A DNA stretch of 40,812 bases, from IMG/VR virus record IMGVR_UViG_2541047766_000005, one strand, 5' to 3'. A program made the translations under genes and the position numbers. The notes under the pieces were generated by a model. The model ran no database searches and was not told where the DNA came from. It worked only from the letters and a program-made list of their open reading frames with translations. Below are positions 1,421 to 12,931 of the stretch, piece by piece; the first letter of the stretch is position 1; each line of letters opens with the position of its first letter. Origin of the DNA: a virus. Taxonomy: Duplodnaviria > Heunggongvirae > Uroviricota > Caudoviricetes.

Positions 1421-2489
1421 ATTTGATTTCAATTTTGTCCCACTCCCTGCCTCTGTCATCACGATACTGTGATGCCATGGTGTCCGACTTATGCCCGAGA
1501 AGATGTTGAGCAAACTTATCGCTTATCTGCTTCTCATAGAGTCTTGCAGACAAACTGCGCAACTCGTGAAAGGTAGGCGGATCCCCTTCGAAGGAAAGAC
1601 CTGATGCTTTTCGTGCGCGCATAAAATACCTTGATACTGTGCCGGATGAAAGCGGTTCACGACGAGTAGATGCAATTATGGTTTCTCCGCCAAGAATCTC
1701 TTTGCATTTATCAAGTGTTTCCTTCATTGATATCCCGAGAGCATCAACATGCAATGTTGTTGGGATGGCAATTTTTACGCCTGTTTTGCTTTGCTCGACA
1801 TAAAGATATCCATCTACGATATCAGACCACTTCATTTCGCATAAATCACCAACTCGCTGCCCGGTAACAACAGCCAGTTCCATTGCAAGTCTGAGCCAAC
1901 ATGGTGATGATTCTGCTGCTTGATAAATTTTCAGGTATTCGTCAGCCGTAAGTCTTGATCTCCTTACCTCTGATTTTGCTGCGCGAGTGGCAGCGACAGG
2001 GTTTGTTGTTATATGGCCTTCAGCTATTGCCTCTCGGAATGCATCGCTCAGTGTTGATCTGATTAACTTGGCTGACGCAGCCTTGCCCTCGTCTATGTAT
2101 CCATTGAGCATTGCCGCAATTTCTTTTGTGGTGATGTCTTCAAGTGGAGCATCAGGCAGACCCCTCCTTATTGCTTTAATTTTGCTCATGTAATTTATGA
2201 GTGTCTTCTGCTTGATTCCTCTGCTGGCGAGGATTTTTTCGTAGCGATCAAGCCATGAATGTAACGTAACAGAATTATCACTGTTGATTCTCGCTGTCAG
2301 AGGCTTGTGTTTGTGTCCTGAAAATAACTCAATGTTGGCCTGTATAGCTTCAGTGATTGCTATCCTCCTGTCTCTGCCTAATCCGAACTCTTTACCCGTC
2401 CTTGGGTCCCTGTAGCAGTAATATCCATTGTTTCTTAAATAAAGGTTAGGGGGTAAATCCCGGCGCTCATGACTTCGCCTTCTTCCCAT
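1419..2489 (-). CDS. int: Lambda-type tyrosine integrase
   Basis: 356-aa ORF whose translation matches lambda Int as I recall it (MGRRRSHERRDLPPNLYLRNNGYYCYRDPRTGKEF...); adjacent to attL P' arm. Confidence 0.95.
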   Translation of the reverse strand: MGRRRSHERRDLPPNLYLRNNGYYCYRDPRTGKEFGLGRDRRIAITEAIQANIELFSGHKHKPLTARINSDNSVTLHSWLDRYEKILASRGIKQKTLINYMSKIKAIRRGLPDAPLEDITTKEIAAMLNGYIDEGKAASAKLIRSTLSDAFREAIAEGHITTNPVAATRAAKSEVRRSRLTADEYLKIYQAAESSPCWLRLAMELAVVTGQRVGDLCEMKWSDIVDGYLYVEQSKTGVKIAIPTTLHVDALGISMKETLDKCKEILGGETIIASTRREPLSSGTVSRYFMRARKASGLSFEGDPPTFHELRSLSARLYEKQISDKFAQHLLGHKSDTMASQYRDDRGREWDKIEIK

Positions 2490-8906: not shown

Positions 8907-9480
8907 CTCATGGTGGCAGGAACTAATGCATTTTTTCCTGCAAGGAATGACACTTAAACAGTTGATTCATATGCTAATCATCCTGATCATATTGATTATT
9001 GTTATGCCGGTAAGCGTAAAAGAATGGATAAACCTGCATAATCCAGAAATCCTTCCTCATTATTGGATGTATTACATCCTGTTGTTCTGCGTTAGCTATG
9101 TGCTTAACGGTGTAGTTAATTCCGCTTATCACGCTGTGACTGAAAGAATTGAGGTATCCGCTGCTCAGAAGCGCAAATCCAAAGAAGAAAAATATGTGCA
9201 AGATTTGTTTGATTCGTTAACTCTTGGAGAAAGAGCGTATTTGGCATTCGCTGTAGCCGCTAATAACCAGCTACAAACGGAAAAGGGAGCTCATGAATCA
9301 ATTTCATTGCTCAAAAAAGGCCTCCTCGTTCGAAGGCCTCCTGCTGTTGGATATCCTGATACCGACCGTTTTATTATCCCGGAAAGCTATAGACATGAGT
9401 GCTACATTAGGTTTGCCGGGAAGGCAGACAGCCTTATGGATGAACTTATCGCTCAGGATAAGCATGGCAAAAACAAGTAA
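8899..9480 (+). CDS. sieB: SieB-like superinfection exclusion membrane protein
   Basis: 193-aa ORF on the opposite strand inside the early-left operon between ral and N; two N-terminal hydrophobic helices; N-terminus MNNSWW... recalled as SieB-like. Confidence 0.6.
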   Translation: MNNSWWQELMHFFLQGMTLKQLIHMLIILIILIIVMPVSVKEWINLHNPEILPHYWMYYILLFCVSYVLNGVVNSAYHAVTERIEVSAAQKRKSKEEKYVQDLFDSLTLGERAYLAFAVAANNQLQTEKGAHESISLLKKGLLVRRPPAVGYPDTDRFIIPESYRHECYIRFAGKADSLMDELIAQDKHGKNK

Positions 9481-9496
9481 TTAGCAAATGAATTTA

Positions 9497-9769
9497 TCAT
9501 CTCGCTGTCAGTTGTTTTGATTTCCGGTAGCCTGCCGCGTAAAGAGCTACGTTTGGCAGGCAAATACTTCCACTGCGTTCATCTTCTTCCTTACAGCGAA
9601 GGCTTCCGAGTGATGCTGCTTTGTCTGCTCTGACGCAACCAGAGAGCTTTAGCGCAATCTTTCGCGCCAGTCGCTGTTCTTGCATTGCCTGTTCACGTTG
9701 AGCCTGTCTGCGTGCTCTGCGGCGATTTCTGGCGTTATCGTCAGCCAGATATGTAATGACTACTGTCAT
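9497..9769 (-). CDS. N-like transcription antiterminator (P22 gp24 type)
   Basis: 90-aa ORF with arginine-rich motif NARNRRRARRQAQ near the N-terminus and C-terminus LPNVALYAAGYRKSKQLTAR resembling P22 gp24; GGAGG SD; first gene downstream of nutL. Confidence 0.75.
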   Translation of the reverse strand: MTVVITYLADDNARNRRRARRQAQREQAMQEQRLARKIALKLSGCVRADKAASLGSLRCKEEDERSGSICLPNVALYAAGYRKSKQLTAR

Positions 9770-9877
9770 GTTGACCTCCGATGATTGACTTTGGCGGTGA
9801 CGCGCCGGGTGCTTATCTTCCGGTTGCCGTCGTGCAGCTGCACTTCACGTCACCCCAAAGCCAACTACTCTTTGGTT

Positions 9878-9917
9878 CCCGCATTTCGGCGGGACAATCC
9901 CATCAATGTTAAAGAGC
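9878..9917 (-). promoter_or_regulatory. nutL (boxA GCTCTTTAA and boxB hairpin CCCGCCGAAATGCGGG)
   Basis: On the leftward transcript, boxA-like GCTCTTTAACA then a 5-bp-stem hairpin; the same boxA and an identical boxB occur at 11547-11589 downstream of cro. Confidence 0.7.
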
Positions 9918-9965
9918 CTGCCAATCTGTTCCGTTTGGCTACCAGCGTCCTGCTGATGGCTAAAG

Positions 9966-10050
9966 AATACTGTAGGTATTTTATTGTGTAAATACCCAAG
10001 GTATTTATTTTTGGTGAGATAATGATAAGCAAATGAATACAAAGGATATT
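9966..10050 (-). promoter_or_regulatory. OL operators and pL region
   Basis: Three 15-bp sites AATACTGTAGGTATT (9966-9980), AATACCCAAGGTATT (9991-10005), AATACAAAGGATATT (10036-10050) sharing AATAC-N5-GTATT dyad symmetry with the OR sites. Confidence 0.65.
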
Positions 10051-10136
10051 TATTTTTTCGGTGTCTGCTTGTTCAGTGCTTTTTATGCGGGATATGTGAA
10101 GTGGATCCCGATAGCTATTGCTGCCGGGATTATGGG

Positions 10137-10505
10137 TTAGTCAGCGAAGGTTAAGACGAGAATTACCTTAATGATGTCTGCTACAACAGACACGGCCATA
10201 GATAAACCAAAGACAATCCAAGCCATAGAGATGTCTTCACTACCATCGTATAGAGTTCCGTAATCACTGGTGTAAGGCGTAAATGTCGCGCCTTGATACA
10301 ATAGGTATAAGCTTGATCCATAGAGGATAAATGCAGATATTCCTTGTATTGCCATGATCACCAGAATCATGAAACGAGCTGATCTATGCGCCCAAGCCTG
10401 GCTTATTTTTTCTGATAGAGATTTCGCAATAAAAGCATGCGCTAAGCCGTAAATTGTCGAGATTGCCAACATCCCAAAAAAGCTTGCTATAGCGGTTCCA
10501 ACCAT
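10137..10505 (-). CDS. Multi-pass membrane protein encoded immediately downstream of cI (rex-position gene)
   Basis: ORF with three predicted hydrophobic helices; probable ATG start at 10505 with AAGGGG SD (track ORF starts at TTG 10526 overlapping the cI stop). Confidence 0.6.
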   Translation of the reverse strand: MVGTAIASFFGMLAISTIYGLAHAFIAKSLSEKISQAWAHRSARFMILVIMAIQGISAFILYGSSLYLLYQGATFTPYTSDYGTLYDGSEDISMAWIVFGLSMAVSVVADIIKVILVLTFAD

Positions 10506-10522
10506 AAGCGCCCCTTGCGTGA

Positions 10523-11239
10523 TCAAACCAGCCTTAGTTTTGTCTCAATTGCAACGCCTATAATCTTGCAGTTTCCATTGATTGGCACGAGAGGCCATGC
10601 AGGGTTAAGTCCCTTGAGGTATTTATTTCCGCCGTCGATTATCAGCTTCTTGAATGTTGCTTCGTTAGAGTCAGAAAGTTTTGCTATGACCAAGCTGCCG
10701 TTGATCGCCTCCCTTCCGGTATCGAAAAGAACGAATGTTCCCTCTGGAATGCTTAACCCAACCGGTGCCGTCATTGAATCACCTTCCACTTTAAGCCAAA
10801 ACGCATTACCTTGAATATGCGCGTCAGACTCAAGCCAAACATCTATGTCTTTAATGGTGTATGGTTCGCATGCTTCACACCACGAGCCAGCCTGGATACT
10901 GCTTAACACCGGATACCTCTTTCCTGCTCTGTATTCCCCTGCATACCTTACGTTGGCATCGCTCTTAAGGCTTTCTGCCTGTTCTGCAACCTTGGCAGCA
11001 ATTGACTGGCTAAAATCAGCAATTGAGACTTGCAACAGTCGTGCAAAACCAGATGCAACCTCAACGTTTAGCGCGTTTCTGCCATTAAGATAATGCCCTA
11101 CCGCTCCTTGGGTGATACCCAGTTCATCAGCGATTGAGTATTGGGTTATTCCCAATTCTTTCTTTTTTGACTCATACAAAGCCTTAAGCCGCTTAGCGTC
11201 TTCGAGCTGTTCTGTCGTCAGTGATTTTTTATTTTCCAT
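10523..11239 (-). CDS. cI: CI-type prophage repressor (HTH N-terminal domain, LexA/S24-like C-terminal autocleavage domain)
   Basis: 238-aa ORF with lambda-CI-like architecture (QYSIADELGITQGAVGHYLNG helix-turn-helix; C-terminal VEGDSM...FKKL motif); divergent from cro across the operator region. Confidence 0.9.
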   Translation of the reverse strand: MENKKSLTTEQLEDAKRLKALYESKKKELGITQYSIADELGITQGAVGHYLNGRNALNVEVASGFARLLQVSIADFSQSIAAKVAEQAESLKSDANVRYAGEYRAGKRYPVLSSIQAGSWCEACEPYTIKDIDVWLESDAHIQGNAFWLKVEGDSMTAPVGLSIPEGTFVLFDTGREAINGSLVIAKLSDSNEATFKKLIIDGGNKYLKGLNPAWPLVPINGNCKIIGVAIETKLRLV

Positions 11240-11250
11240 AGCTTAATTCT

Positions 11251-11314
11251 AATAGCTAAGGTACTTAAACTAAAAATACCCTGAGTATTGATTGCTTTGA
11301 ATACCTGTAGTATT
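11251..11314. promoter_or_regulatory. OR operators with divergent pRM/pR
   Basis: Three 15-bp sites AATAGCTAAGGTACT (11251-11265), AATACCCTGAGTATT (11275-11289), AATACCTGTAGTATT (11300-11314), centres 24-25 bp apart, between cI and cro. Confidence 0.7.
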
Positions 11315-11345
11315 CTTTGTTCATGGTTAATAACGGAGAGTGCAT

Positions 11346-11540
11346 ATGATTCGAATGACACTTGCCGATTACGCCAAAATCCATGGACAGGCTAAAGCAG
11401 CCAGTGACTTTGGTGTAATCCAGTGCGCTATCAGCAAGGCCATTCTGGCAGGCCGTAACATTATGGTTACGGTAAAGCCTGATGGCAGTGTGATTGGAGA
11501 GGAAGTTCGTCCTTTCCCAAGCAACAAGAAAAACAAATAG
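11346..11540 (+). CDS. cro: Cro repressor
   Basis: [36 protein letters not shown]... resembles lambda Cro; GGAGAG SD 5 nt upstream of ATG 11346 (track ORF begins at GTG 11340). Confidence 0.85.
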
Positions 11541-11546
11541 TAACAC

Positions 11547-11589
11547 CGCTCTTTAACAGTCATGGTCCTCATTCCCGCCGAAATGCGGG
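11547..11589 (+). promoter_or_regulatory. nutR (boxA CGCTCTTTAA, boxB CCCGCCGAAATGCGGG)
   Basis: boxA 11547-11556 and hairpin 11574-11589 just downstream of cro; boxB identical to nutL. Confidence 0.7.
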
Positions 11590-11648
11590 AATACAACGCG
11601 CATCAGTTGGTGCGTATAACTTCTTATTTGTTAAGGAAATACTTACAT

Positions 11649-11927
11649 ATGCAACTTACAAGTACTCGCAAGAAAGCGAATGCAATTACAAGCAACATCC
11701 TGAATCGAATTGCTGTACGTGGTCAGCGAAAGGTTGCTGATGCATTAGGGATTAATGAATCGCAAATTTCGCGATGGAAAGACAGCTTTATCCCAAAGAT
11801 GGCCATGCTTCTGGCTGTGCTGGAGTGGGGTGTTGAAGACGAGGAATTGGCGGAACTGGCAAAGAAAGTAGCCAAGGTGCTGACAAAAGAAAAGCCTCAA
11901 GACTGCTGCAACAGTTTTGAGGCCTGA
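11649..11927 (+). CDS. cII: CII transcriptional activator
   Basis: 92-aa ORF from internal ATG; ...ALGINESQISRWKDSFIPKMAMLLAVLEWGV... closely resembles lambda CII; upstream track extension overlaps nutR and is rejected. Confidence 0.85.
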   Translation: MQLTSTRKKANAITSNILNRIAVRGQRKVADALGINESQISRWKDSFIPKMAMLLAVLEWGVEDEELAELAKKVAKVLTKEKPQDCCNSFEA

Positions 11928-11961
11928 TGTAGAAAGACTGGATCAATCCACAGGAGTAATT

Positions 11962-12123
11962 ATGACAAAACGTCGTAAGAAATACCAGGAAAAAGAAGAG
12001 ATTCGACACCCTGATTCACCTGAGGGATTAGTGGTAGCCGCAGCAAATAACAGGGCGTTCGCAGAGCGCCTTGTTGGTGTTTACAGACTAGCCAAAGCAG
12101 GAGTGAAACATGGGCGTCGTTAA
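11962..12123 (+). CDS. Small basic hypothetical protein between cII and O
   Basis: 53-aa ORF from ATG 11962 with AGGAG SD; track ORF starts earlier at 11917. Confidence 0.4.
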   Translation: MTKRRKKYQEKEEIRHPDSPEGLVVAAANNRAFAERLVGVYRLAKAGVKHGRR

Positions 12124-12931
12124 GTTAGCTGATTACAGGCCTCAACTGGAGGTCGTGGAGCATCGCTTGGCAGATACCGAAGATGGTTTCATGCGCGTTG
12201 CTAACGAGATTACCGACAGTCTGCTGATGGCTGATTTAACCGTCCGGCAGTTGAAGGTGATGCTCGCTATCATGCGCAAGACATACGGATTCAATAAGCC
12301 GATGGATCGACTCACAAACACGCAGATAGCAGCCATGACAGGTATTCATCACACTCATGTTTGCGCTGCCAAGCGCCAGCTTATTGAGCGTAAATTCCTC
12401 ATTGCTGATGGCGTGAAAATCGGAGTGAACAAGGTGGTTTCTCAGTGGATTAGCCAGGACAGCTTAAAATTAGCTAAAACAGCTAATAAAACATTAGCTA
12501 AGTCGGCTAATGGGTATAAGCCAAGTCAGCTAAACACAAAAGACAATATACAAAAGACAATAAATACAAATACCCCCTTACCCCCTAACGGGGGCGGCGA
12601 TGGGCAGGTTAAACCTGAACGTCGCAAGGCAGAACGAATCGACTACGAATCCTTCCTGAACGCCTACAACACCGAAGTCGGTGACAGACTTCCACATGCT
12701 GTTGCGGTCAACGAGAAACGCAAACGCCGCCTGAAGAAAATCATCCCGCAACTGAAAACGCCAAACGTGGACGGTTTCAGAGCGTATGTCAGGGCGTTTG
12801 TGCATCAGGCCAAGCCGTTTTACTTCGGAGACAACGACACGGGCTGGACGGCCGATTTTGATTACCTGCTGAGAGAAGATTCGTTAACGGGAGTTCGTGA
12901 AGGGAAGTTTGCAGACAGGGGGATTGCATGA
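12110..12931 (+). CDS. Replication initiator (O-like replisome organiser)
   Basis: 273-aa ORF in the lambda O position with AGGAG SD; contains internal iteron/AT-rich ori-like segment. Confidence 0.75.
12460..12565. repeat. Putative replication origin inside the O-like gene: AGCTAA iterons plus AT-rich tandem repeat
   Basis: AGCTAA/GGCTAA repeated at 12472, 12481, 12496, 12505, 12528; CAAAAGACAATA direct repeat at 12537-12548 and 12551-12562. Confidence 0.5.

Follow-up and report, generated by a model that had tools for sequence, protein, structure and literature searches.

The window, by which we mean the whole 40.8-kb stretch of viral DNA analysed here, carries a canonical lambdoid immunity region, ordered N-nutL-pL-cI-pR-cro-nutR-cII, with operators at pL and at pR, and its remainder is a P22-like mosaic. 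The features of this region are listed below; window positions equal positions in the corresponding segment L001 plus 8000.

9497..9769, minus strand: gene N, 90 aa, with an arginine-rich motif (ARM), DNARNRRRARRQ, at about residues 11-22; Pfam PF25694, N_peptide, 60.3 bits (cut-off 27.9)
9855..9875, minus strand: second conserved hairpin, CCAAAG-N9-CUUUGG, just 3' of the nutL boxB
9877..9918, minus strand: nutL (boxA, spacer, boxB), leftward from pL; equals nutL of HK620, AF335538 7753-7794 (L001 1877-1918)
9877..9894, minus strand: nutL boxB hairpin, UCCCGC-CGAAAU-GCGGGA, 6-bp stem, by repeat search and folding
9909..9917, minus strand: nutL boxA, GCUCUUUAA; its exact sequence occurs twice in the window
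9957..9992, minus strand: pL, by homology to the pL annotated in HK620 (L001 1957-1992); promoter-like site at 9992-9964
10137-10526, minus strand: hkaS-like open reading frame
10523..11239, minus strand: cI repressor, HTH_3 plus Peptidase_S24; cI of HK620
11288..11323, plus strand: pR, by homology to the pR annotated in HK620 (L001 3288-3323)
11346..11540, plus strand: cro; Pfam Cro, 91 bits
11547..11592, plus strand: nutR (boxA, spacer, boxB), rightward from pR; equals nutR of HK620, 9423-9468 (L001 3547-3592)
11548..11556, plus strand: nutR boxA, GCUCUUUAA, an exact copy in the window
11571..11592, plus strand: nutR boxB hairpin, AUUCCCGC-CGAAAU-GCGGGAAU, 8-bp stem, by repeat search and folding
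11649..11927, plus strand: cII; Pfam Phage_CII, 151 bits

The region thus has the components of a lambdoid N/nut system, namely a small N protein with an N-terminal ARM and two nut sites in transcript sense in their operons, composed of boxA and a boxB hairpin. On the minus strand, the nutL pair of elements falls between pL and N, 108 nt upstream of the N gene; on the plus strand, the nutR pair falls between cro and cII. Terminator-like hairpins occur further down the leftward operon at 8435-8414 and 8289-8268, and the HK620 record annotates terminators tR1, tL1, and tL2. A scan of positions 9300-12300 against Rfam returned no family at E <= 1, so the nut sites are apparently not modelled there.

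The original prediction, that nutL and nutR share an identical boxB preceded by boxA, holds in the repeat structure of the window. The 16-nt core CCCGCCGAAATGCGGG occurs exactly twice, at 9878-9893 (minus strand) and 11574-11589 (plus strand). With up to two mismatches allowed, 0.04 matches to it are expected in the window, and none of 100 shuffles of the window reached two. The 9-mer boxA GCTCTTTAA likewise has only two exact copies, at 9909-9917 (minus strand) and 11548-11556 (plus strand). The gap from boxA to the 16-mer is 15 nt in nutL and 17 nt in nutR, as had been predicted; measured to the base of the extended boxB stem it is 14 nt in both. As RNA, this boxA, GCUCUUUAA, fits the rrn consensus type rather than the lambda type; the published forms are UGCUCUUUA for rrn and CGCUCUUA for lambda, and N activity is reportedly higher with a boxA of the consensus type (PMC2724277).

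These sites are real but ordinary, and they were already known. Over 2.5 kb the immunity region is 98.1% identical to that of HK140 and 97.7% identical to those of HK620, HK630, and others. The HK620 record, AF335538, has carried since 2001 the labels "nutL; putative N-utilization leftward" and "nutR; putative N-utilization rightward", and both features map base for base onto window positions 9877-9918 and 11547-11592, so homology places the nut sites exactly where the original prediction put them. A 60-mer spanning nutR is 100% identical, the nut sites show no difference, and N is 93% identical, with a few substitutions at residues 58-66; the surrounding P22-like mosaic differs between HK620 and the window. 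Records for mEpX2, HK140, and HK630 annotate boxA elements as well. The nutL segment was found in 501 of 5426 complete E. coli genomes (about 9%), nearly always at 99% identity or better, and with an annotation of such age the sites therefore matter little as a discovery. The reference for N, nutL, and nutR of HK620 is Clark et al. 2001 (GenBank AF335538; J Mol Biol 311:657). In the searchable literature we found no experimental test of an HK620-type N/nut pair. Taken with the evidence that follows, we hold it very probable that the two sites are nutL and nutR of an HK620-type lambdoid immunity region in a P22-like E. coli phage or prophage.

Folding was performed for both sites, and each boxB is predicted to form a stable hairpin with a formal loop of 6 nt, CGAAAU. 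The 26-nt segment containing the nutR boxB folds into 8 bp at -12.5 kcal/mol (z -3.65, with 0 of 200 shuffles as good), and the corresponding nutL segment folds into 6 bp at -10.5 kcal/mol (z -2.95, with 1 of 200 shuffles as good). This stability belongs to the boxB hairpins alone, since the nut segments taken in full, at 66 nt, do not significantly exceed their shuffles in stability (z -0.6 and -0.8).

Relatives of these sites were collected from IMG/VR in two scans. The pattern boxA-N(10-30)-CCGAAATG matched at least 120 loci, and a scan anchored on boxA and the nutL spacer only yielded additional boxB types. Stem pairing was scored over the 17 distinct genuine sites among the matches listed, a set of related sequences selected beforehand for pairing in the five inner pairs. 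In this pre-filtered set 87.5% of stem cells pair, and four of the eight stem pairs are changed on both sides among the 17 related sequences. The co-variation score of the pre-filtered sites, 0.305, compares with 0.194 in shuffles, none of 500 of which reached the observed value, and with 0.007-0.141 when the register is slid. Pantoea phage PA-1 and Erwinia phage Eho49 keep the CGAAAU loop on altered stems, including a G-C to A-U exchange at the second pair; the nutR sites of Pantoea and Erwinia have a mismatched third stem pair (C·C or C·A). Judged by these alignments, the boxB stem appears to be conserved as RNA structure, with compensatory changes. One further match, L023 (TGACC-CGAAAT-GGTCA), has a seemingly fully compensated stem but falls within an unrelated coding sequence; we treated it as a chance match and left it out of the count.

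The N-terminal sequences of the N proteins compared are as follows.

Window: MTVVITYLADDNARNRRRARRQAQREQ
P22: MTVITYGKSTFAGNAKTRRHERRRKLAIER
phi21: MVTIVWKESKGTAKSRYKARRAELIAERR
lambda: MDAQTRRRERRAEKQAQW

The aligned ARMs of the window, lambda, P22, and phi21 proteins have in common the core NA-x-x-R-R-x-x-R-R, and the window protein begins with the P22-like leader MTV(V)ITY. Because the window ARM keeps both core and leader, it is a variant rather than an outlier, and its earlier description as divergent was overstated; the divergence is mild. N proteins of this class range from 76 to 101 aa and differ in their C-terminal modules. A sequence search of the PDB with the window N returned no match even at E <= 10.

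Whether this ARM is matched to the boxB, as the original prediction had it, can be judged from phages with close N homologs, in which the two types travel together. The count covers nutL-type sites with the same boxA and spacer, followed by 450 nt or more of sequence. Downstream of 90 of the 92 sites with a GNRA loop core lies an ARM of the form xx[RK]NRR[RK]x[RK]R, and tyrosine occupies ARM position 6 (TAKSRYKARR, N[AS]KNRYRARR) at all 18 sites with a UAAC (phi21-type) or UAGC core; with many of the loci near-identical to one another, these counts do not represent independent events. Arginine or tyrosine at ARM position 6 thus tracks G or U at the first base of the loop core, and other boxB hairpins accompany unrelated N termini. 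In mEpX2, N is shared with the window over only about the first 30 residues, yet the nut sites are identical. VT1-Sakai provides the complementary case. Its N is near-identical to the window N from residue 37 to the end, and its nutL has boxA, spacer, and 3' flank in common with the window nutL, but residues 1-36 of N and the boxB are both phi21-type (ARM GTAKSRYKARR, boxB CUAACC). As far as sequence comparison can tell, VT1-Sakai is a natural swap of ARM and boxB as one module, and it is the strongest evidence for N-boxB matching, which this case and the wider co-variation support. In the class represented by L131 and L136, N is otherwise close to that of HK620 but has tyrosine at ARM position 6, and the loop is C-UAGC-A; this makes position 6 a candidate specificity determinant.

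The loop itself admits of more than one reading. The original prediction contrasted it with the loops of lambda (GAAGA in nutL, GAAAA in nutR) and P22 (GACAA); we checked these comparison sequences and they are correct, and the window loop differs from all of them. It was also noted for its length of 6 nt, which is indeed found at both sites, but that length is not new: phi21, omitted from the earlier comparison, already has the hexaloop CUAACC, in which a C·C flanking pair surrounds a GNRA-like UAAC core (PDB 1NYB; PMC12550061). CGAAAU is not a pentaloop of the lambda and P22 type (G-N-R-N-A or GACAA, with one extruded base); a lambda-like reading as GAAAU was rejected, as the shifted register cannot pair. 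Against the phi21 hexaloop, compared in sequence and not in three dimensions, the length and the C...U flanks fit, but the core is GAAA and not UAAC. Most sites have C-GAAA-U under essentially the same ARM. The nutR sites of L020 and L133 have C-GCAA-U, L129 has C-GAGA-U, and the nutL of L133 has A-GAGA-U, for which ViennaRNA predicts a GAGA tetraloop closed by A-U. In Hafnia phages, which have a different ARM, the loop architecture is the same, with C-GCAA-U in nutR and, in nutL, C-GAGA-G, where the flanks form a closed C-G pair. Loop positions 2-5 are therefore only ever G-N-R-A, flanked at positions 1 and 6 by C·U, A-U, or C-G. This pattern is most simply read to mean that the loop is probably a genuine GNRA tetraloop (GAAA, and in relatives GCAA or GAGA) that stacks on a usually non-canonical C·U pair. 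Alternatively, the sites may be nut sites at which N reads six unpaired bases, whether through a phi21-like U-turn or through base-specific reading of the C and U. The near invariance of those flanks, present in 16 of the 17 distinct sites, might stem from direct contacts with the protein; the phi21 hexaloop has its own mode of recognition; and thermodynamic folding predicts an open loop of 6 nt. ViennaRNA, however, can model neither a C·U pair nor a GNRA fold, so it is the pattern of loop variants on which the tetraloop reading is based, and that pattern argues against six-base reading: under one and the same ARM the core varies solely within G-N-R-A, one nutL has in place of C·U an A-U pair that closes a GAGA tetraloop, and the Hafnia nutL has C-G there. 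We consider a true six-base loop unlikely, although well short of negligible.

Two further explanations would deny the hairpins any part in recognition by N, and the same variation in stem, loop, and ARM bears on both. The 16-mers might be "boundary sequences" at recombination junctions of mosaic modules, with no role at the level of RNA. Homology to phages with a different cro does start exactly at the nutR boxA, and the CUS-3 record annotates the region between N and cI as "bsq5; boundary sequence". Co-variation in the stem and loop variation restricted to G-N-R-A are nonetheless signatures of RNA structure, both copies are oriented in the sense of their transcripts, and the loop co-varies with the ARM; a role at junctions is better explained as a consequence of the conservation of functional sites, and we regard the boundary explanation as highly improbable. 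Intrinsic terminators, or elements of RNA stability or processing unrelated to N, would also appear as G+C-rich hairpins in early leaders. Neither hairpin is followed by a U-tract, however, and the terminator scan called neither; moreover, each of the two divergent operons has this hairpin, with the same distance of 14 nt to a consensus boxA, and the loop type of the hairpin tracks the ARM. This last explanation seems to us the least credible of all. The reading we prefer is that both hairpins are the boxB elements of N utilization sites, with a loop that is probably a GNRA tetraloop.

Comparison with characterized systems helps to place that boxB. In P22 (gp24-nut, PDB 1A4T, GACAA pentaloop), the N protein has the MTV(V)ITY leader and the ARM core NA[KR]xRRxxRR, as in the window. 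The P22 nutR boxB, ACCGC-C-GACAA-C-GCGGU, whose fold has 5 bp and a loop of 7 nt, closely resembles the window form, CCCGC-C-GAAA-U-GCGGG; the latter corresponds to P22 nutR less the extruded third-position C of GACAA and with the 3' flank changed from C to U. A histidine and an arginine of the P22 protein contact that extruded C (PMC12550061), and where P22 has H, E, and R the window ARM has R, A, and Q. The phi21, H-19B, and VT1-Sakai systems have the same boxA, with spacers and downstream flank homologous to those of the window, and window N residues from about 37 to 64 are common to phi21 N, and from about 37 to 90 to VT1-Sakai N. By the VT1-Sakai annotation, H-19B N is a phi21-like N, similar to the window N beyond the ARM. 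The phi21 boxB resembles that of the window in its 6-nt loop with a pyrimidine-pyrimidine flank around a 4-nt core, but the core is UAAC with a C·C flank, whereas the window has GAAA, true to GNRA, with C·U; the phi21 ARM reads SRYKARR, and the window ARM, NRRRARR, has arginine in place of the phi21 tyrosine. The lambda system shares the logic of boxA, spacer, boxB, and an ARM helix (core RRRxRR) that recognizes a GNRA-type fold, but its boxA, CGCUCUUA, has one U fewer, its spacer is shorter, its GNRA-like pentaloop (GAAAA or GAAGA) extrudes the fourth base, and its N contains Trp18 and lacks an N-terminal leader.

The homologous systems of lambda, P22, phi21, and H-19B suggest how this one would work; for H-19B, antitermination by N together with its nutR has been demonstrated biochemically, in vitro as well as in vivo (PMC3526286). 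The pL and pR transcripts would each present an rrn-type consensus boxA to NusB/NusE and a spacer to NusA. The arginine-rich helix at the N terminus of the 90-aa N would bind the boxB hairpin, 14 nt beyond boxA. The remainder of N, its central and C-terminal portions, is shared with the N proteins of H-19B/VT1-Sakai and phi21 and would contact NusA and RNA polymerase, which might then read through the early terminators. The C-GAAA-U loop would most likely present a true GNRA fold on C·U, as a relative of P22 nutR lacking the extruded C and as an architectural analog of phi21 C-UAAC-C. A bolder proposal, in which we place slightly less belief than doubt, is that the HK620-type pair constitutes a fourth N-boxB class, in which the ARM reads a GNRA tetraloop on a C·U pair without an extruded base, and in which arginine or tyrosine at position 6 switches between GNRA-core and UAAC/UAGC-core loops.

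The value of these sites is modest, as a natural data set for the specificity of ARM-RNA recognition. While boxA, spacer, and the body of N stay constant, ARM/boxB cassettes (GNRA-core with R-type, UAAC- or UAGC-core with Y-type, and others) appear interchangeable, and they might serve in designing orthogonal N-boxB pairs for tethering. A separate observation concerns the second hairpin, at 9855..9875 on the minus strand. It is kept in Pantoea phage PA-1 and Erwinia phage Eho49 as well, and its counterpart in phi21 has changed bases but retained pairing (CCAGAA/UUUUGG).

The nutR site lies where the homology of several phages to the window begins. In CUS-3, IME10, ECP1, N7, JEP4 and Gally, all of which carry an unrelated cro, that homology begins exactly at position 11548, the first base of boxA, so that a junction of the mosaic falls at the nut site. 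The N-cI intergenic region of CUS-3 is annotated as a "boundary sequence" (bsq5). Further features of the immunity region, in window coordinates, are:

9855-9875, minus strand: second hairpin, CCAAAG-N9-CUUUGG, directly 3' of the nutL boxB
10137-10526, minus strand: 129-residue hydrophobic ORF, homologous to hkaS of HK620, located between cI and pL where rex would be expected
11593-11640, plus strand: stretch able to form a hairpin, GCGCATCAGTTGGTGCG, with a T-rich run after it, between the nutR boxB and cII

The hairpin at 9855-9875 is conserved in Pantoea phage PA-1 and Erwinia phage Eho49, and in its phi21 counterpart the bases differ (CCAGAA/UUUUGG) with the pairing retained. It may represent an element resembling boxC, or a "second nut hairpin", as mentioned for the nutR of H-19B. 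When the 66-nt nutL segment at 9862-9927 (minus strand) is folded to minimum free energy, the sequence AAAGAGU downstream of boxB pairs with boxA (GCUCUUU) and so encloses boxB, a possible alternative structure of nutL that, as modeled, would sequester boxA. Taken as a whole, the segment is no more stable than shuffled sequences (z -0.6), and conservation of the boxA pairing in PA-1 and Eho49 is only partial.

On the nutR side, a different hairpin occupies the place of the 11593-11640 stretch in phi21, VT1-Sakai and the Hafnia phages. In HK620, tR1 is annotated right after nutR, and the hairpin-forming stretch of the window may be part of that terminator. For the hkaS-like ORF, which has no Pfam match, position suggests a membrane protein expressed from the prophage with a role in exclusion.

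Two IMG/VR sequences (L131 and L136) have in nutL a boxB variant, UUCCUCU-CUAGCA-GGAGGAA, with a C-UAGC-A loop, and encode an N protein that is HK620-like except for Tyr in its arginine-rich motif (N[AS]KNRYRARR); this boxB-N pair falls between the HK620 and phi21 classes. A third IMG/VR sequence, L159, has downstream of an HK620-type nutL an ORF whose product begins MTDKVNRIPLPSQRSLLKQLRYD; this ORF is reminiscent of the HNH homing endonuclease that the PA-1 annotation places directly after N. No arginine-rich motif of N occurs within 560 nt downstream of that nutL, which suggests either that an insertion separates nutL from N or that N has been lost. Hafnia phage Pocitis76 carries a tRNA-Gly(CCC) gene in its nutL-N leader (2196-2269, minus strand), both predicted by ARAGORN and annotated in the record; its close relative yong1 has no tRNA in this leader, and no tRNA gene occurs in the window.

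A 60-nt sequence 100% identical to the HK620-type nutR of E. coli occurs at 253465-253524 of MT713136.1 (Aeromonas phage AP1, 254 kb). Located near the end of this jumbo phage record, it appears to be a contaminant or a product of chimeric assembly.
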